A stretch of DNA of 64,000 nt from Planctomycetota bacterium (GTDB taxonomy: Bacteria > Planctomycetota > GCA-002687715 > CAIWVZ01). The notes beneath the pieces were generated by a model that was given only the letters and a program-made list of their open reading frames with translations, did not search any database and was not told the origin of the DNA. Below, one piece after another: positions 978-40,960 of this stretch (positions within the stretch are counted from its first letter, which is position 1; every line of letters begins with the position of its first letter). The stretch is taken from positions 256,001 through 320,000 of the forward strand of contig JBGANV010000003.1 in NCBI GenBank assembly GCA_044222185.1, in the 5' to 3' direction. Made by a program: the position numbers and the translations under genes.

Positions 978-3900
978 TCAGGGAATCCGCACGCGAATGA
1001 GGGACGGTTCATGGGCGGGGACTTCGACCTGCGCGTCGGCCCACGTCGCGCTGCCATGGGTCACCACCACGCGCCAGGACCCCGGGATCGCGGGCAGCGT
1101 GAGCTTCGTTGGGCACTCCATGCCGGCGAAGCGGATGAGCGGCTGGTCGTGCCACACGACGCCGGCTGCGTCTTCGACCCGCATGCGGACCCCGGGGAAC
1201 CGCGCGCGCAGGATCGGATCGGTAGCGCTCAGGAGCGTTCCGTCGGCGTTGCTCCGATACTCGAACGCCAGCGCCATGGGCGTCGTCGCGAGGATCCGGA
1301 GCTCGACGCTCCGCGCGCCCACCGCGTCGACCGTGATCCGCGAGGGTGCCGAGACCCGGAACTCCGTTCGGCTGACCGCCCGCGCCATCACCCACCAGTC
1401 GCCCGGCTCCAGCCCGCGGACGGAGAACGCGCCGTCGGCCGCCACGGCGACCTCCGTCGACCGCCCCTCGACGGCTGCGCGACGGACGACGACCGACACC
1501 GTGCCTCCGGGGACCGCTCCGTCGGCATCGAGCACGTGGCCTGCGAGCGATCCACCGACTCCCAGCCTGACGGCCACGTCGATGATGGGGCGCGAGCCAT
1601 CGACGACGATCCCGTCTCGTGCCACGCGCATGGCGTGCGGCGCCCACACATGAACCGTCCACGTCCCGACGGGCGTGCCTCGGAACTCCACGATGCCAGG
1701 CCCGGTCACCTGCCCGACGCGGCCGCCCCCCGACCCGGAGACGAGTTCCGCTTCCAGCCCCGCGAGAACGGGATCGCCCGTCGTTCCATCCGTGACCGTC
1801 ACCCTCACCGTCGCGGTCGGCGTTGCCGTCGCACCAATCGTGAGCACGATCGGCGCCGAACTCGGAGAGATCTCGAACGTCTTCCACGCTGGCCCGACCC
1901 CATCCGCTTGCGCGCAGAGCTCGATGGGACCCGGCGCGAGGTCCTCGATGCGAAACTGCCCACGGGCATCGCTGGCCAGGTATCGCAGTCCCATCCGACG
2001 GCCCGTCTCAGCTTCGGCCTTCGGCGAACCGCGCGCCATCACGACGGCTCCCGCCACGGGCTCCCCCGCCGCCGTGACCACGGACCCGGAGACGACGAGC
2101 CCCCGCGACAGCACGATCCGCAAAGGAGCGCCCGCGGCGCCCATGGGAACGTCCGTCGTCACGAACCCGCTGGCACTCGCCCGCACGGTGTCGGCCGCGA
2201 CGGCCTCGCCGCTCGTCGTTCCGCTGATGGATGCGGATGCGCGGTGCCCGCGATCGACCACGATGGTGAATCCGCCGGCCGCGTCCGTCAGCACCGTGGA
2301 GGGCCACGACTGCGCTTCGATGCGAGCGCCGGCGATCGGCGTCCCCGCCTCGTCGACGACCGCTCCGCTGACGCGATCACGCCCCATGGTGAAGACGAGA
2401 TCGGGGGCCTCGATGTCGCGTCCCGTCGCTGGAACGAGGAGTTTCGGGTGGCCGGGCAGGGACGTATCGCAGCCGCAGGCCGTCAGGCGAATGCTGGTCG
2501 ACGAGGCGCGCGGAACCGCGACGGTCGCGTGTTCGTAACGACCCTCCGCATCCGTGACCGCGGCACCGCCGAGGGGCCCGCCTTCGCCGGGAACGATCCG
2601 GCCCTCGTCACCATCCGCCTCGTCGTCGGGGGCGGCGAACACGCGGACGCCGGCCACCGGTCGGCCGTCGGGATCGACCACGCGACCCGTGATCCGCAGG
2701 CAGGCGCCCAATGCGATCGACACCTGCTGCACCTCCCGCTCGCCATCCGGCATCACCACGGGACACGAACGCGGCGCGTGCCCTGGCGCGATGGCGGCGA
2801 CGCCTCCGATGACGCGTCGGCCATTGACGAACCGTGAGCTGAGCGCGGGCAGCTTGATGCCCGCCACCTCGACCGGGATCCGATCGAACCGGTACCGGCC
2901 GTCGGCGTCGGCCCGGGTCCGCTGTGCGATCCGACTGCCGAACGCGTTGCGGACTCCGACGCCGCGGATGTACCGGGTCCCTTGCGGGCCGTCCGCCATC
3001 CAGAAAACCACGTCGGCGCCCCCGATCGGTCGACCCGACGTGCGATCGAAGACGACGCCCTCCACGACGCCTCCCCGCGCGAGCACCACGTCGAGCGTCA
3101 CGACGCCCGAAGAATGCGCGGGCTGGGGCCGGAGCGGCCGGGCTTGTGGCGCGAACCCCGGCGCATCGAACGCGACGTGCGCGTCGCCGGTCGGCTCGAG
3201 GGCCGTCGCCGGCACTCCGTCCACCGAGTAGGTCCCGTCCGCGGCCGTCGTCGTGCGCGACGTGACCGGGGTCCATCCCACCATCGTCCGGTAGGTGACG
3301 GTCGCGTCGGCGATCGGGTGCCCGCCCAGGTCGGAAACGACCCCGCGGATCCGGAATGCGGCCTGGAGCACGATCGTCGTCTCGATCCCATCGGCGCGCA
3401 CGAGATCCTTGATCCCCACGGCGAACCCATCGGCCGTCGCGAGCACGTCGAACGCTCGCGCCGCAGACGGCGCCGTGATGACGAATCGCCCCGAGGCGTC
3501 CGTCACGGCGGTCGCGAGAGGAGGCGACGGCTCGCGCTCGGCGGCGCCGATCGCCACGGGAGGCCGCCGACCGGAAGCGAAGACCGAGAGCCGCGCGCCG
3601 GAGATCGGTGCGCCCCTGAGGTCGACCACTCGACCGAGGATCGCGCCCCGCTCGTCGAGCGTCGCCGCGGTCACGGAGACCGGGCGCACGACCGGTCCGT
3701 CCGGCGCCGCCGGAGTCGTCGCGGGGCTCGGCGGCATCGCCGCGTCATCGGCCGCGTCATCGGCCGCGTCGGCCGTCCGTCCGACGAGCGGCGACGGCGT
3801 CGGCGAAGCCATGAGGCCCCACCAGGCCGTGAGTCCGAGCAAGACGACCCCGAACAGCACGAGGAGCTTCTTCATCGTCACGACTCCGGCCGTTCCGGCC

Positions 3901-35849: not shown

Positions 35850-37040
35850 TCATCGATCGAGGTAATAGACGAGATTGCAGAAGACGAGGTCCGGATACGG
35901 ATTCTGGGACGTCGCCATCAGGGTCCCCGCGCCGCCAGCGAACAACACGCCGATCGGCGCGCCAATCGTCTGAGCCGTGGCATCACTGGGGTTGAAGAGC
36001 ATCCCGAAGACCATGGGGCCGATCTGGCTTTGCCCGGAAATCCACGGCGTCCCGACAGCGGCAAACCCCGGAGGCCCGAAATTGCCGCCCTCGGACGTGA
36101 CTTCGAACGGCAGGCCGGCCACTGAGATCGGGCTGTAGAGGTAGTTCGGGTCCGCACCCGTGTCGACCGTTTCGACGGACGAGGCGCTGAGGTTGCCCCC
36201 GGTCGCCACGACGACGCTGATGCCGAGCGTGGTGTTCAAGAAGTTGTTCACCCAGAGTGCCCGTTCCTGGCCGGCGGGCGAACCGACGGACGGGCCCACG
36301 ACGAATGCCACTCCCCCACTCTGCCTGAGGAACTGGAGGAAGCGAGCGGCTTCCAGCGGTGAAGGCGGAACCGTGAAGCGGCAATCCAGGATCACGTCGT
36401 ACGACGTCAGCGCGGCTGGAAGCACGTCGTCCGCGACCACGACGTGATTGCCCAGCAGGGTGAGCGACCCGGCGAGGGCCGTCGCCTGCGCGCTCGGATT
36501 TCCGATGGCCGACGTGCTCGCGGTCTGGCGCAGCAGCAGAACGTGCTTCCCCGTGGCCAGGAACGGCGAGACCTTCAGATGAACGCTGTTCGACATGCGG
36601 ATGTCGGCCACCTGGGGATCCGCGACGGCGCACTGCACGGCGAACTCCAAGCCAGCGAGGCCGGGGTCCATCGGCACGGAAACCACGTGCTCGAGCATGC
36701 TGCCGCCGCCCAGGAGCGTCAGGTCGCGCAGGACGAACCAATCCGCCCCCAGGTCGGTGAAGTAAGGCCCGATCCAGGACGGCCCGGTTTCGGACGACGC
36801 CAGGATCCACACGCCCGCCTGCGGCACCGTGTGGAGGACGAGGTGAAGGTCGTCGCCGAGTTTCAGGTTGTTGCTGACGAGCTTGTGCGGCGCCGCGGGG
36901 ACGACGCTGTTGCCGCCACCCGGTCCGGCGCCGGGCACGCCAGCGAGTTGGAGGATGACGAACATCAAGAACAGGGCTGCTGCGGCGGCGATCAGGACCT
37001 GAGTCGAGCTGGCCTTCCCGCGCGAGACGTCGGTTGACAT
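35850..37040 (-). CDS. Secreted/membrane-anchored hypothetical protein
   Basis: N-terminal hydrophobic helix; beta domain ending VPMDPGLAGLEFAVQ...MSNSVHLKV; C-terminal alpha/beta domain (YDVILD...QSGGVAF) resembling class I GATase/ThuA-like folds. Confidence 0.7.
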   Translation of the reverse strand: MSTDVSRGKASSTQVLIAAAAALFLMFVILQLAGVPGAGPGGGNSVVPAAPHKLVSNNLKLGDDLHLVLHTVPQAGVWILASSETGPSWIGPYFTDLGADWFVLRDLTLLGGGSMLEHVVSVPMDPGLAGLEFAVQCAVADPQVADIRMSNSVHLKVSPFLATGKHVLLLRQTASTSAIGNPSAQATALAGSLTLLGNHVVVADDVLPAALTSYDVILDCRFTVPPSPLEAARFLQFLRQSGGVAFVVGPSVGSPAGQERALWVNNFLNTTLGISVVVATGGNLSASSVETVDTGADPNYLYSPISVAGLPFEVTSEGGNFGPPGFAAVGTPWISGQSQIGPMVFGMLFNPSDATAQTIGAPIGVLFAGGAGTLMATSQNPYPDLVFCNLVYYLDR

Positions 37041-37142: not shown

Positions 37143-37691
37143 TCAGGCGTGGCTGCGATCGGCAGCGTCGATGGGCTGCGGCCCGGCACCGGAACCGCGC
37201 CACGTGCGCACGTCCTCGACGATCTCCTGGGAGCCCGCGCACAGGATCTGCGTTCCGAAGCGCATGTTCGGGCCGTGGCCGCACTGCCCCAGGCAGTGCA
37301 CATCGGTGAACTGGAGCGCCGGGTTCGCGGTCGCGAGTGCAGCCCGCAGGCGTTGGTTGAGCGCCGCGGCGCCGGTCAGCCGGCACGTGACTCCAAGACA
37401 GAAGCGGAACTCGTCGGCCGGCGTGGCCGACACCAGTTGCGCGTGGAACCGCCTGGTGTCGTCCAGTTGAGCCGGCGTGACGCCGAGGTCGGCCGCGACT
37501 GCGCAGTGGACCTCGGGGTCCTCGATGCCGCATCGCCAGAGCGCGTGGGCGGCAAGGATCAACGCGCCGTCAAGCGGTCTGCCTGACGAGTCGGTCCAGT
37601 CGCGCTTGATGTCATCAATGGACACGACGCCCTCCGGAGTTCCGGCGACGACCCGCTCCGTGATCATCCGAAAACCGGCGCGAGTATACAC
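37143..37691 (-). CDS. NuoE-like thioredoxin-fold [2Fe-2S] protein (orphan)
   Basis: CLGVTC ... CLGQCGHGP motif (Cx4C...Cx3C); degenerate NuoE N-terminal helices; start uncertain. Confidence 0.7.
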   Translation of the reverse strand: MYTRAGFRMITERVVAGTPEGVVSIDDIKRDWTDSSGRPLDGALILAAHALWRCGIEDPEVHCAVAADLGVTPAQLDDTRRFHAQLVSATPADEFRFCLGVTCRLTGAAALNQRLRAALATANPALQFTDVHCLGQCGHGPNMRFGTQILCAGSQEIVEDVRTWRGSGAGPQPIDAADRSHA

Positions 37692-37740
37692 CTATCGAAA
37701 GTCGCCGACCAGAGAGCCCGGGCCCCCAGGTCGGCGTCGA

Positions 37741-38250
37741 TCACTTCGGGAAGAGCGAGTCCAGCCGGTCTTTCGCCGTCTGGTCGTAGTCGGCCGCGAG
37801 TTCGACCGCCGGGCGCGTTCCCTTGCGTGTGCGGATCGACTCGAACAGCTCGCTGAGCTTCCGCGCCGCCTCGTTCGTGTAGAGGCGGACCATCCCGATC
37901 GTCGTCTGGTCATCGAAAATCACGGTCAGGATCGTTCGCTCGCTGATCAGGGTCAACTGGATGTTGTCCCGCTGCCCCTGATGGAACACGACCGAGAATT
38001 CGTCCTCGCCGAGGATCCGCGCCATCTCGCGGGTCGCAGCGAACGACCCGGCAATCAGGGCTGCGATCGTATCGATGTCGAAGTCCCGAACGACTCCGGT
38101 CTTCGCCACCATGTGGCCGTCCTTGTCGATGAGCAACGCGCACTTCGAACCAGAGAGGTTCGTGAGCTCCTTGAGGACGGCGTCGATCTTCGCCATCTCC
38201 TCGCGATAGAAGACCAGCCGTTCTTCCCGCAGTCGGTCGGTGTCATTCAT
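37741..38250 (-). CDS. mglB: MglB-type roadblock/LC7 GTPase-activating protein
   Basis: LIDKDGH, IAALIAGSFAAT, FHQGQRDN and IFDDQTTIGMVRL, matching the Myxococcus MglB pattern. Confidence 0.9.
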   Translation of the reverse strand: MNDTDRLREERLVFYREEMAKIDAVLKELTNLSGSKCALLIDKDGHMVAKTGVVRDFDIDTIAALIAGSFAATREMARILGEDEFSVVFHQGQRDNIQLTLISERTILTVIFDDQTTIGMVRLYTNEAARKLSELFESIRTRKGTRPAVELAADYDQTAKDRLDSLFPK

Positions 38251-38359
38251 GACGGTTCACTTTCGTCTATTTCCGGGCCGCGCCTTTCGGACGCGTTCTC
38301 CGCCCACGGCAATCCGCTGCGCGAGGACCCGGTTCCCAACTCACTCGTGGTTGATGGGT

Positions 38360-39397
38360 TCATTTCCGGAAAAAGAAGAGGACGGCAACGGCCACCGCAG
38401 CGCCGAGCAGCACGGCGCCGCCCCAAACGAGAGCCGGCGATACCGACCGCCTCGGGCGCGACGACGAAATGATCACGCGCTGCCGCGACGTGGACTGGCT
38501 TGCAGGCGAAGCCGTCCGCTTGGCTCCCGGACGCGTGGCAGGGCGCGGCACTGCGGGCACCGGCATGCCGCCCGTCGCCCCTGCCGAAGCCGGATCGGGG
38601 TGCGTTTGGGCACGAGGCATTTCGACGGTCGCAACGCTCCGCGCGCTGGCGACCGGCCCGGTTGCGGCGGTTCCGGCCGTGCCGTGGCCATGCGCGGGAG
38701 CCGGAGCCGTGGGCGCGGCATGCACTCGCGGAGTCGGCGGAGCCATGGCTGGCCGGGGCGCACCGGCCGTCGCAGGTGCGGAAACCGCCGCTTTCGCCGC
38801 CGGCTTCTCGTCTGCGAGCATCTTCACCTTCTGGAGCACGAGCATCGAAAGGCCCTTGAACGTCTCGACGACGCCCGTGCCTTTCGCCGCGACCGCCTCG
38901 AATGTCGGGACGTTGAAGCGGTTGAGCGTTCGGTTCATCTCGTCGAGCGTGAGCGCGTTCGGCAGGTCGCGCTTGTTGAACTGGATGACGTGCGGCATCT
39001 CGCACAGGGACCGGCCTTGTTCGCGCAGGCAGTCCTCCAGGTTCTGGAGCGACTCGACGTTCTCGGCCATCTTCTCCGGGTTGCTGTCGGCGACGAACAC
39101 GACGCCGTCGGCGCCCCGCAGGACGAGCTTGCGAGTGGAGTTGTAATAGACCTGCCCAGGAACCGTGTAGAGCTGGAACTTCGTCTTCATCCCGCCGACG
39201 GTGCCGAGGTGGAGGGGCATGAAATCGAAGAACAGCGTCCGGTCCGACTCGGTCGCGATCGACGAAAGAACGCCACGACTCTCGTCCGGCGCCTTCTGGT
39301 GAACGACCTCGAGATTGGTCGTCTTTCCGGAAAGGCCAGGTCCGAAATACACGACCTTGCAGTTGATCTCTCGAAGGGCCAGGTTGAACTGCACCAC
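38360..39397 (-). CDS. mglA: MglA small GTPase with C-terminal Pro/Ala linker and TM tail anchor
   Basis: REINCKVVYFGPGLSGKTT, DRTLFFDF, TVPGQ, NKRD; C-terminal LVWGGAVLLGAAVAVAVLFFFRK. Confidence 0.92.
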   Translation of the reverse strand: MVQFNLALREINCKVVYFGPGLSGKTTNLEVVHQKAPDESRGVLSSIATESDRTLFFDFMPLHLGTVGGMKTKFQLYTVPGQVYYNSTRKLVLRGADGVVFVADSNPEKMAENVESLQNLEDCLREQGRSLCEMPHVIQFNKRDLPNALTLDEMNRTLNRFNVPTFEAVAAKGTGVVETFKGLSMLVLQKVKMLADEKPAAKAAVSAPATAGAPRPAMAPPTPRVHAAPTAPAPAHGHGTAGTAATGPVASARSVATVEMPRAQTHPDPASAGATGGMPVPAVPRPATRPGAKRTASPASQSTSRQRVIISSSRPRRSVSPALVWGGAVLLGAAVAVAVLFFFRK

Positions 39398-39412
39398 GAC
39401 AACTACCCCCCG

Positions 39413-39766
39413 TCAGACGGTGATTTGACCGAGCTTCCGCAACGTCTTCGCGGCGCTCTCGATGTCCAGGAGACCTTGATCGAGGTCGATGTGACGATCG
39501 GTCACGACGACCAGGTACGCGTTTCCGAGATCGGTGACGATCACTTTGCCGCGGGTCGCCACCATGACGAGCCGTGACATTCCGCCGTCGCCGCATTGGC
39601 GTACGACGCTTTGAGCTCCCGCGAGCAATGATGAGACGAGGGCTGCCGCCGTGTCAGGGTCGAGTGAACCTCGAAGCCGTGACGCGACGACGATCCCGTC
39701 GGGTGTCGCCACCAGGCTGCCGGAGATTCCCGGCAGCGAATTCAATTCGTCGAGGACCTCGATCAT
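39413..39766 (-). CDS. Roadblock/LC7 domain protein
   Basis: LNSLPGISGSLVATPDGIVVAS...AAAL roadblock pattern. Confidence 0.85.
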   Translation of the reverse strand: MIEVLDELNSLPGISGSLVATPDGIVVASRLRGSLDPDTAAALVSSLLAGAQSVVRQCGDGGMSRLVMVATRGKVIVTDLGNAYLVVVTDRHIDLDQGLLDIESAAKTLRKLGQITV

Positions 39767-39775
39767 GAACGTTTC

Positions 39776-40885
39776 CTATCGGGAGCGATCCACCGCAGCC
39801 GCCACGTCTCGGGCAGCCTCGCGGACCGCATCCAAGTGACTCGATGTGATGGCGACGACGAGCACGAGGGCGCTCCAGCCACCGACGACGACGATCGTCT
39901 TGCGCCCCGAGACGATCTCCGTCTCCTGGAAGGCGCCGATTCCGATCCGCCGCGCGCACACGGAGACCGTGCGCCGCATCATCCCTGCGAGGGCGAGGAA
40001 TGGGTCGGGCTCGGATGAATCCGCCTCGCGAACCTGCCCCTGCATCGCGACGAGTTCGTGCGCCGGATGAACGAAGGCCACGCGCTCGACGCCGCCCAAT
40101 TCGGAGAGGCCTCGCAGCGCGCGCGACAGCTTGGGCTTCAGCCCGGGCGCCGCGCCGAGACGGCGGCGATCGCGCGGACGCCATGCGTCGAACGGACGGT
40201 CCCGGTCTTCGACGGTCTGGATGAGCACGTCGATCGTCGAGGTCTCCAGGGGTAGTCCCGTGAGGCAGTCCTTCAGACATTCGCCGTCCGGGTCGTTCGC
40301 CCGGAGATCGAGCAGCGCGTAGACGTGGTGGAGCGCGCTCGCGACGGCGCCGACGTAGTAGTAGGCCTCCGCGAGCGCGAGGTGAGCGTCAGAGTCGTTG
40401 GGCTTTCGTTCCACGACGAGGAGCCATGACCGCACCGCGGCAAGGCCGTCCGCAGCGACATGGTCCCGGGTGAAGCGTCGCCACAGGATCCGCGCGCGCG
40501 CCGCGACCGCGTCCGGCGAGTCCGGATTCGCCGCGCAGAAGCGGTCGGCAACCCCCAGGGCCAGGTCGAGTTCCTCTGCCTGACCGTAGTGATCGATGAG
40601 CGCCGAGAAGTCGCCGCCGTCGCCGCGGCCGTCGACGCGCCCGACGAGCTCGAGTTCGCGTCCCCGTCCGACCTGCCGCCAGATCAGACGCAGCTGATCT
40701 GCCATCTCTCGCGAGCGCGGGAACCTCTCGACCCCGGCCCGGGCGGCGTCCATGGCGCGGTCCCAGCGGCCCTGTCGCACCAGGGCGCGGCACTCTGCCA
40801 GGATGGCCCGAGGACCGTCGGTCGGCGGCGCCCGTCGGGACGCCTCCACCCGCGGTTTGGTTGTGCGTTTGAGAAAGCCCAGCAT
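39776..40885 (-). CDS. TPR protein with C-terminal roadblock-like domain
   Basis: TPR motifs (DAHLALAEAYYYVG); C-terminal LSELGGVERVAFV...GIGAFQETEI roadblock-like fold; ATG at 40885. Confidence 0.7.
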   Translation of the reverse strand: MLGFLKRTTKPRVEASRRAPPTDGPRAILAECRALVRQGRWDRAMDAARAGVERFPRSREMADQLRLIWRQVGRGRELELVGRVDGRGDGGDFSALIDHYGQAEELDLALGVADRFCAANPDSPDAVAARARILWRRFTRDHVAADGLAAVRSWLLVVERKPNDSDAHLALAEAYYYVGAVASALHHVYALLDLRANDPDGECLKDCLTGLPLETSTIDVLIQTVEDRDRPFDAWRPRDRRRLGAAPGLKPKLSRALRGLSELGGVERVAFVHPAHELVAMQGQVREADSSEPDPFLALAGMMRRTVSVCARRIGIGAFQETEIVSGRKTIVVVGGWSALVLVVAITSSHLDAVREAARDVAAAVDRSR

Positions 40886-40960
40886 CACTCCACAGCCTGA
40901 CGCGTGTTCGAGCCCGGTGCCGGCACGCAAAAACGCGGGCGCGGCGGAGGACCTTCCCGT

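Follow-up and report, generated by a model that had tools for sequence, protein, structure and literature searches.

A predicted tail-anchored form of the small GTPase MglA across Planctomycetota

We describe a gene in a 64,000-nucleotide stretch of a Planctomycetota bacterium genome (positions 256,001 to 320,000 of contig JBGANV010000003.1, assembly GCA_044222185.1; this whole stretch is hereafter the window, and its numbering is used throughout), which encodes an orthologue of the bacterial small GTPase MglA. The sequence evidence makes it likely that this protein is built as a tail-anchored inner-membrane protein, that it represents a phylum-wide variant of MglA and that its switch is run by MglB. 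The gene, which we term mglA-TM, specifies a G domain, a disordered linker and a C-terminal transmembrane (TM) helix, as laid out below. A preliminary description of this DNA had presented the arrangement as the peculiarity of one gene; we find it instead to be a trait of the phylum's whole MglA clade, as sampled by 130 complete open reading frames (ORFs). The same description had taken the source for a probable planctomycete, and indeed the nearest named records are Planctomycetota metagenome-assembled genomes.

38360..39397, minus strand: mglA-TM gene, 345 amino acids (aa), G domain plus disordered linker plus C-terminal TM helix (ORF, PDB, Pfam and AlphaFold2)
38813..39397, minus strand: MglA G domain, residues 1-195 (PDB MglA match, motifs and AlphaFold2)
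38438..38812, minus strand: Pro/Ala-rich cationic linker, residues 196-320, predicted to be disordered (composition and AlphaFold2)
38447..38479, minus strand: juxtamembrane motif RVIISSSRPRR, residues 307-317, with a hydrophobic triplet, a Ser/Thr run and an Arg cluster
38369..38434, minus strand: predicted TM helix, residues 322-343, after which R344, K345 and the stop codon together occupy 38360-38368 (hydropathy and AlphaFold2)

The ORF runs uninterrupted for 345 codons from a GTG start to its sole stop at the end, and its first part carries every motif expected of an active MglA. The P-loop (G1) is GPGLSGKTT at residues 19-27, which conforms to the GxxxxGK[ST] pattern, with G19, G21, G24, K25, T26 and T27 invariant across a 22-row orthologue alignment (A1). 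Switch I reads DRTLFFDF at 52-59 and includes the intrinsic Arg53, the G3 motif TVPGQ at 78-82 includes Gln82, and Arg53, Thr54, Asp58 and Gln82 are likewise invariant in the 22 orthologues; the roles of the Arg and the Gln follow Miertzschke et al. 2011, a source that PMC4316618 and PMC10933270 cite for them. The G4 motif, NKRD at 141-144, is of the NKxD form, with N141, K142 and D144 invariant in A1. Further, the MglA structures from Myxococcus xanthus (6h17_A, E 1.7e-71) and Thermus thermophilus (3t12_A, E 1.8e-63) align with residues 4-192 from end to end; Rab and Arf proteins come next among the PDB matches, at E ~1e-5, and Pfam returns the generic Arf, Ras and Gtr1_RagA matches only. With the 22-row alignment as input, AlphaFold2 models the G domain confidently (pLDDT mostly 81-97). 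At 345 aa the protein exceeds the range of a single domain of ~150-240 aa by which a 2015 survey defined Group 1 MglA, a range that is one study's operational size limit and not a biochemical one. Size limit aside, the motifs, the full-length similarity and the coupling to mglB, described below, identify the product by sequence criteria as a genuine member of the MglA family.

Beyond the G domain, residues 196-321 are 41% Pro+Ala and 68% Pro, Ala, Ser, Thr or Gly, with a net charge of +11 and zero aromatic residues, and AlphaFold2 assigns residues 200-315 a pLDDT of 40-57 and no secondary structure. In alignment A1 both the sequence and the length of this linker are hypervariable among orthologues. 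In A1, the juxtamembrane motif close to its end is conserved as a block among the same-order orthologues (families f1-f4); no such conservation was found within the phylum as a whole. Since AlphaFold2 neither folds nor docks this motif, a role can be proposed for it only as a basic membrane-proximal cluster.

The protein terminates in ALVWGGAVLLGAAVAVAVLFFF-RK, the last residues being ...FFFRK. TM-like segments were called from Kyte-Doolittle windows of 19 residues (KD19) with a threshold of 1.4; here KD19 reaches 1.5 or more only at window starts 318-327, peaking at 2.42 for 323-341, and its maximum anywhere in residues 1-300 is 0.95. AlphaFold2 places a helix at 321-344 (pLDDT 84-91). Thus, a single predicted TM helix occupies residues 322-343 of 345, well inside the ~30 C-terminal residues that define a tail anchor, and hydropathy points to no other hydrophobic segment or signal peptide, the N-terminus being the first strand of the G domain. 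A prenylation motif for a lipid anchor (CAAX, CC or CXC) is absent, as residues 196-345 contain no Cys. Charged residues flank the helix in this copy on both sides, RPRR before it and RK after it. The preliminary description had read from the letters an intact MglA G domain, with the same four motifs, followed by a Pro/Ala-rich linker and a terminal hydrophobic helix ending in RK; the motifs are all where it placed them, and composition, hydropathy and AlphaFold2 agree on the rest.

To survey how widely this architecture occurs, the G domain was used as the query against 401 genomes of the phylum, and a match at E <= 1e-40 was obtained in 225. The best-scoring rows, comprising 155 loci from 151 genomes, were read: 22 of these run off the contig, one runs off after the TM segment, two are masked and 130 contain complete ORFs. 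An extension of at least 63 aa follows the G domain in all 130. In 98 of them the TM segment is terminal, i.e., no more than 12 residues lie beyond the best window; in 26 it is followed by 13-204 further residues; and the remaining six have no TM segment, the median KD19 of the 124 TM windows being 2.66. The tail-anchored forms (n = 98) have a linker of median length 127 aa (77-292) with a median net charge of +12. Their net charge before the TM segment is greater than that after it in 79, equal in 13 and lower in six, a bias that fits a cytoplasmic placement of the G domain. A search of the ESM Atlas found only MglA-like clusters of planctomycetes (325-372 aa) and clusters of Myxococcota.

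The departures from the tail-anchored form bear on what is being conserved. Four of the six TM-less forms have basic or amphipathic tails: one (L026) ends in a strongly amphipathic basic helix with a hydrophobic moment of 0.86, which may be likened to the MinD-type membrane-targeting helix, and three others (L027, L235 and L245) end in a basic-aromatic motif of the FKKFKKFL type. As these tails are of a membrane-binding type, membrane binding itself looks like the selected trait, and conservation would act on having an extension able to hold the G domain at a membrane rather than on any particular sequence. The forms with residues beyond the TM segment include every complete ORF of family f15 (13) and of family f24 (eight). 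In these families (e.g., L218, L238 and L247 of f15; L145 and L153 of f24), 27-142 residues follow the helix and carry conserved motifs, ..GIQKLLMDEP.. in f15 and ..ALQKFY.DKLAP.. in f24. If the helix is inserted as in the tail-anchored forms, these residues would sit outside the cytoplasmic membrane, making the protein a bitopic MglA.

Outside the phylum, a first set of loci, which includes Acidobacteriota, Krumholzibacteriota, Gemmatimonadota, Fibrobacterota, Myxococcota and Nitrospirota, yielded 65 complete MglA ORFs, all of 192-197 aa, with one more running off its contig. As controls, 121 genomes each of Myxococcota and Acidobacteriota were searched and the best 30 loci of each were read; two of these control loci repeat genomes of the 65-ORF set, and one short acidobacterial ORF (L315) is from an unpublished genome. 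All 30 of the Myxococcota ORFs are 195-201 aa long. Among the Acidobacteriota, 12 of 30 are ~194-197 aa and 18 carry a C-terminal extension of 83-445 aa; none of the 30 has a TM-like window, the maximum KD19 in the extensions being 1.28. We note that these extensions (18 of the 30 loci L287-L316, from genomes G526-G645) are acidic or Pro-rich and end in a conserved alternating motif of the ...KLKL.IK or RRFKLSLSLRLD type; they look like a second, unrelated family of "long" MglA. Taken together, a TM segment was seen in none of the 125 complete MglA ORFs of other phyla. Hence, long MglA is not unique to Planctomycetota, and the TM-anchored form is seen only there among the phyla sampled. The preliminary description had contrasted the gene with a soluble MglA of ~195 aa; the contrast stands for all 65 ORFs of the first set and all 30 of Myxococcota, and fails as to length for the 18 extended Acidobacteriota, which nevertheless are without a TM segment. 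The search for homologues that it had proposed bears it out, with a C-terminal TM segment in 124 of 130 planctomycete ORFs (one doubtful) against 0 of 125 elsewhere.

A tree of 274 G domains, built with FastTree, a quick method, from which L315 was excluded and which is unrooted, places all 152 planctomycete G domains on one side of a branch with an SH-like support of 99; the 18 extended sequences from Acidobacteriota group apart from these, in a clade with a support of 98. The TM state requires four changes on this tree, which is consistent with a single gain of the anchor and a few replacements.

The gene stands in a cluster whose members are all on one strand, in the order TPR-Roadblock gene, Roadblock gene, mglA-TM, mglB and ferredoxin gene:

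39776..40930, minus strand: TPR protein with a C-terminal Roadblock-like domain, 384 aa from an uncertain TTG start (Pfam TPR_14, E 3.8e-09)
39413..39766, minus strand: small Roadblock/LC7 protein (Robl117), 117 aa, ending 15 nucleotides upstream of mglA (Pfam Robl_LC7, E 4.2e-16)
37741..38250, minus strand: mglB, for a GTPase-activating protein (GAP) of the Roadblock/LC7 type, 169 aa, 109 nucleotides downstream of mglA (Pfam Robl_LC7, E 1.6e-13)
37143..37691, minus strand: thioredoxin-like [2Fe-2S] ferredoxin (NuoE-like), 182 aa, downstream of mglB (Pfam PF01257, E 5.2e-08)

The mglB product matches M. xanthus MglB over its full length (6h5b_B, E 5.1e-31) and scores 101 bits against the NCBIfam MglB model, under its equivalog cut-off of 200. 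It thus supplies the coupling to MglB expected of an MglA, with the gene order inverted relative to other phyla: of 28 planctomycete loci, 22 have mglB on the downstream side of mglA, and of 66 loci in other phyla 42 have it upstream and none downstream. The upstream genes are distinctive too, a small Roadblock gene preceding mglA in 25 of the 28 planctomycete loci and a TPR gene in 19 (many being cut by the 1.5-kb flank), against none of the 66 for either. By these comparisons the mglA-TM operon is lineage-specific.

Robl117 finds profile matches among solved Roadblock proteins down to E 6.6e-16, and together with mglB it accounts for the only two Pfam Roadblock matches in the 7.08-Mb genome. 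The TPR protein is a more divergent case. Its C-terminal 134 aa, of which roughly the last 120 are Roadblock-like, have no Pfam match, give a weak pairwise BLASTP hit to Robl117 (E 0.03) and a single weak Roadblock match in a PDB profile search (E 0.017), and are related to the Robl117 family by hhalign with a probability of 94.2% and E 1.1e-07; hence, the likeness is clear only by profile-profile comparison. A predicted heterodimer of this domain with Robl117 reaches an ipSAE of 0.82 versus 0.00 for the best control; in a benchmark, 116 of 157 solved complexes attained that mark, as did 2 of 215 mismatched pairs. Contacts agree to at least 98% across the three runs, the partners have a pLDDT of at least 87 and the interface is the usual Roadblock dimer interface. 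As Roadblock dimers have already been solved, the pass may reflect likeness to these; at this strength the modelling supports binding between the TPR-Roadblock protein and Robl117. We also observed that in many relatives (L007, L012, L014-L019 and others) the TPR-Roadblock ORF either stops within a few bases of where the small Roadblock gene begins or runs into it, the gap in the window being 9 nucleotides (39766-39776); this junction suggests translational coupling.

Downstream, the ferredoxin gene keeps its place after mglB in 11 of 28 and in 7 of 14 planctomycete loci, making it a conserved neighbour within the order. It is followed at 35850-37040 (minus strand) by an ORF of 396 aa that has a hydrophobic N-terminal segment, is matched by neither Pfam nor NCBIfam and keeps its place in relatives from family f1, with E down to 3e-87 (L034). 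The 20 kb around the cluster encode glycosyltransferases, a poly(A)-polymerase-family protein, a cyclophilin and a TPR-redoxin; no motility genes were found in them.

Elsewhere, the genome encodes MreB (457 bits) and seven ORFs with MshEN domains, which have the size of PilB/GspE-type ATPases. MshEN is the N-terminal domain of ATPases of the MshE, PilB and GspE type. In one planctomycete of family f19 (G037), the MglA orthologue (L030:1495-2901, plus strand) is itself fused to an MshEN domain (PF05157, E 1.2e-10) and has a polybasic end, a fusion that, as read from its domains, links MglA to the type IV filament machinery.

We propose the following mechanism, in which we infer insertion, an N-in topology, constitutive tethering, interactions with the GAP and the partners, and the process controlled. 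A catalytically complete G domain would reside in the cytoplasm at the end of a disordered cationic leash of ~125 aa tied to a single C-terminal TM helix. By analogy with other bacterial tail-anchored proteins, the helix would span the cytoplasmic membrane, leaving the G domain on the inner side and only the RK pair beyond the helix. The GTP/GDP switch would run with the MglB GAP encoded just downstream, and the pair formed by the upstream TPR-Roadblock protein and the 117-aa Roadblock protein probably joins in the switching. Classical MglA partitions between the cytosol and the cell pole. The planctomycete switch would be confined to the membrane surface, with spatial control exerted through two-dimensional diffusion and capture, and its effectors would hence have to be membrane-proximal and within reach of the leash. 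In what is the weakest step, envelope machines, type IV pili foremost, would be the candidate targets; these are put forward because M. xanthus MglA acts on type IV pili via the TPR protein SgmX (PMC7519303, PMC7668184), because of the MshEN fusion in L030 and because the genome has many PilB-like genes.

Several observations weigh against this proposal or narrow it. First, another MglA-like gene in the genome codes for a soluble paralogue, which is ~219 aa long when read from its likely start, is 39% identical, keeps the Arg, the Gln and NKRD and is without a TM segment or an adjacent mglB; hence, MglA-type activity need not all be tethered. This paralogue (G000:C6:388362-389081; locus L002, ORF within 1249-2142, plus strand) has, by eye, a cysteine-desulfurase-like and a glycosyltransferase-like gene as neighbours, and open frames of ~225 aa akin to it occur in relatives. 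Second, the survey covers the best-scoring 151 of the 224 other matching genomes, and at E <= 1e-40 no MglA was found in 176 of the 401 genomes of the phylum. Among these are all 20 genomes of family f7 and all five of f5, several of them complete single-contig genomes, so the module must be dispensable or have been lost in whole families. Third, the TM calls have soft edges: the threshold of 1.4 overlaps the highest window within a G domain (1.46), L191 is borderline at a KD19 of 1.43, and the window of L030 (1.66) lies in or beside the MshEN domain and is probably not a TM segment, which would reduce the count to 123 of 130. Fourth, the topology argument is slightly weakened for this copy by the terminal RK, which goes against the positive-inside expectation, and six of the 98 tail-anchored orthologues have the opposite charge bias. 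Finally, the connection to type IV pili comes from the one fusion and from analogy, base composition is uninformative on the reading frame inside the linker, and among contigs from public runs no independent one crosses the joint between G domain and linker at 38694-38814.

Of the alternative explanations, one accepts the tether and changes its purpose: the anchored MglA would mark or organize membrane domains, such as the invaginated cytoplasmic membrane and sites of budding or uptake, in the manner of Arf and Rab, rather than serve motility or polarity. Its appeal comes from the combination of a hypervariable linker with an anchor, which is the layout of eukaryotic membrane GTPases, from the three kinds of anchor (TM, amphipathic and basic) within one clade, from the Roadblock partners encoded alongside as in Ragulator and from the surrounding 20 kb being devoid of motility genes. 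Nothing in our analysis, however, ties mglA-TM to membrane remodelling, its nearest relatives being regulators of polarity and motility, one orthologue being fused to the MshEN domain of pilus or secretion ATPases and the genome possessing MreB along with many PilB/GspE-like ORFs; we consider this alternative unlikely.

Another alternative makes the tether releasable, with a protease cutting the exposed linker on a signal to free a soluble MglA of ~195 aa that relocalizes as in Myxococcus. A long, disordered and hypervariable linker would indeed be an accessible substrate, and the G domain alone is a complete canonical MglA. Yet no conserved cleavage motif stands out in alignment A1, the conserved cluster is without a protease gene, the TM-less lineages retain tails of the membrane-binding type instead of losing the extension, and a soluble paralogue is already present in the genome, all of which leave controlled release of the G domain quite improbable. 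The hydrophobic C-terminus might instead be a helix for protein-protein docking, or a sorting or cleavage signal, rather than a membrane span: it is Gly/Ala-rich, and a hydrophobic C-terminal helix with basic residues is superficially PEP-CTERM-like. A sorting signal of the PEP-CTERM type was considered and rejected, as there is no N-terminal hydrophobic segment, no match to an NCBIfam sorting-signal model at E <= 0.01 and no conservation of the terminal basic pair, many orthologues ending in ...FLM, ...GLI or ...LTL. A GTPase, moreover, requires cytoplasmic nucleotide, and the 26 orthologues with a further tail after the helix fit a span rather than a terminal signal. A non-membrane role of the helix is accordingly very improbable.

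There remains the explanation that the extension is an artefact of assembly, a frameshift or a missed stop, the true protein being a 195-aa MglA, to which the uninformative composition of the linker and the uncovered joint at 38694-38814 lend some support, and whose probability we regard as negligible since 130 of 130 complete orthologues from independent assemblies read through, 124 of them reaching a TM-like segment in frame. In the linker, GC at codon positions 1, 2 and 3 is 0.73, 0.78 and 0.74, and one alternative frame is open too; what supports the frame adopted here is that the TM helix lies in it and that the orthologues share it. Relatives in the databases, 300-430 aa long, derive from NCBI, JGI, ENA and Logan assemblies alike. 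A 906-nucleotide contig from an independent study (X2) spans 37786-38691 with two substitutions and zero gaps; this contig and another (X5) cover most of mglA-TM without indels, and other pieces cover the G domain. Near-identical DNA to 37700-39800 recurs in activated-sludge and bioreactor metagenomes from several studies; for X2, 10 of 12 contigs are at least 99% identical. Contigs from RNA libraries were found at 37796-38061 (mglB), 38152-38302 and 39631-39800 (the Roadblock/TPR junction), which is not proof of transcription, and none of these RNA-library contigs lies on mglA itself. We conclude from these comparisons that the extension of planctomycete MglA is real and under selection. The tests that the preliminary description had set for itself thus largely come out in its favor: the extension is no artefact, being read through in all 130 orthologues, and is conserved in every one of them, with a TM-like segment in 124 (one doubtful). 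As for a stop after the G domain, which it had wanted checked against reads, the gapless contig answers for 37786-38691 and nothing independent does so for 38694-38814.

Returning to the tail-anchored, MglB-coupled switch, a broader proposal can be built upon it, which we offer as a doubtful one in its entirety. Planctomycetota would have evolved once, and independently of eukaryotes, a membrane-resident switch of the Ras superfamily that follows the design logic of Ras, Rab and Arf, in which a conserved G domain is joined through a hypervariable linker to an anchor that can be exchanged (TM helix, amphipathic helix or basic tail). It would have its own set of Roadblock regulators, among them a predicted heterodimer that brings Ragulator to mind. 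The bitopic forms of families f15 and f24, with a periplasmic tail, could couple the nucleotide state to structures outside the membrane, and the module might specify poles, buds, pili or invaginations in cells noted for their unusual membranes.

These genes are already on record in databases, and the architecture is apparently undescribed. Full-text literature searches on MglA, on Planctomycetes and on Ras-like or tail-anchored GTPases found no description of a membrane-anchored MglA. The principal survey of small GTPases in prokaryotes dropped any sequence longer than 240 aa, and its main text does not list Planctomycetes among the lineages with Group 1 MglA, although the discarded long ones might be in its supplement (PMC4316618). 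The automatic JGI name of the relatives P0004-P0121 is mostly "signal recognition particle receptor subunit beta". That identity was tested and rejected, there being no Pfam SRPRB match at E <= 0.01 and the anchor being C-terminal, not N-terminal; the name is probably a propagating annotation error. Other relatives are called "GTPase domain-containing protein", "ADP-ribosylation factor-like protein" or "cell polarity determinant GTPase MglA", and a precomputed PF28211 label on the relative P0095 was not reproduced by Pfam search. The length cut-off of that survey, together with names such as these, amounts to a blind spot in which the variant has lain.

The significance of this variant lies in what it would do to the accepted picture. 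MglA serves as the paradigm for Ras-like polarity switches in bacteria. In the textbook mechanism, it is a small soluble protein that moves between the cytosol and the pole according to its nucleotide state. A phylum-wide MglA that is built into the membrane and coupled to MglB implies two-dimensional diffusion, a leash of fixed length and effectors that are obligatorily membrane-proximal; it would thereby change the physical premise of the best-studied small-GTPase circuit of bacteria and serve as a natural experiment on the effect of tethering in a GTPase polarity circuit. Further, it flags an unstudied set of regulators, the TPR-Roadblock and Roadblock proteins, and extends the parallels between bacteria and eukaryotes in the membrane targeting of small GTPases.

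How, then, does mglA-TM compare with known systems? With the Group 1 MglA/MglB systems of M. xanthus and T. thermophilus it has in common the G domain, the Arg, the Gln, the NKxD motif and a full-length MglB encoded adjacently; it differs in its 345 aa in place of ~195 and in the disordered linker and TM helix that make up the excess. Relative to the MglA/MglB module of other phyla, mglB is downstream and two extra genes for Roadblock-domain proteins are upstream. In M. xanthus, MglC belongs, with SgmX, to the effectors and regulators of MglA that have TPR or Roadblock domains. RomY is a further regulator of MglA in that organism (PMC9481161). The proteins encoded upstream of mglA-TM resemble SgmX, RomY and MglC in domain content, being TPR or Roadblock proteins encoded together with an MglA; in contrast to these, TPR and Roadblock are here fused in one 384-aa protein, whose predicted partner is the 117-aa Roadblock protein. 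Among bacteria, tail-anchored proteins such as TssL, DjlC and Flk, and insertion of the YidC/SRP (signal recognition particle) type, are established (PMC3426401, PMC6794478). The single C-terminal TM segment and the cytoplasmic N-terminal domain are alike in these and, by prediction, in mglA-TM, and no GTPase is named in the portions of these two sources drawn upon here. The long MglA of Acidobacteriota (18 of the 30 loci) is comparable in its G domain and long low-complexity extension, and differs in that the extension is acidic, has no TM segment, ends in the ...KLKL.IK-type motif and belongs to a separate clade.

Eukaryotes attach small GTPases to membranes in several ways: Ras and Rab are prenylated at the end of a hypervariable region, Miro/Gem1 is tail-anchored and the beta subunit of the SRP receptor has an N-terminal TM segment. 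The planctomycete clade shares with these the general layout of a G domain, a flexible and variable linker and an anchor, as well as the occurrence of alternative anchors within one clade. It differs from them in that mglA-TM lacks a CAAX motif, its anchor is a C-terminal peptide helix and its G domain is that of a bacterial MglA, not of Ras, Rab or Miro. The likeness to the eukaryotic proteins is thus one of analogy and not of membership: a G domain of the bacterial MglA family would have come to be held at the membrane by a flexible linker and an anchor, as these eukaryotic GTPases are.

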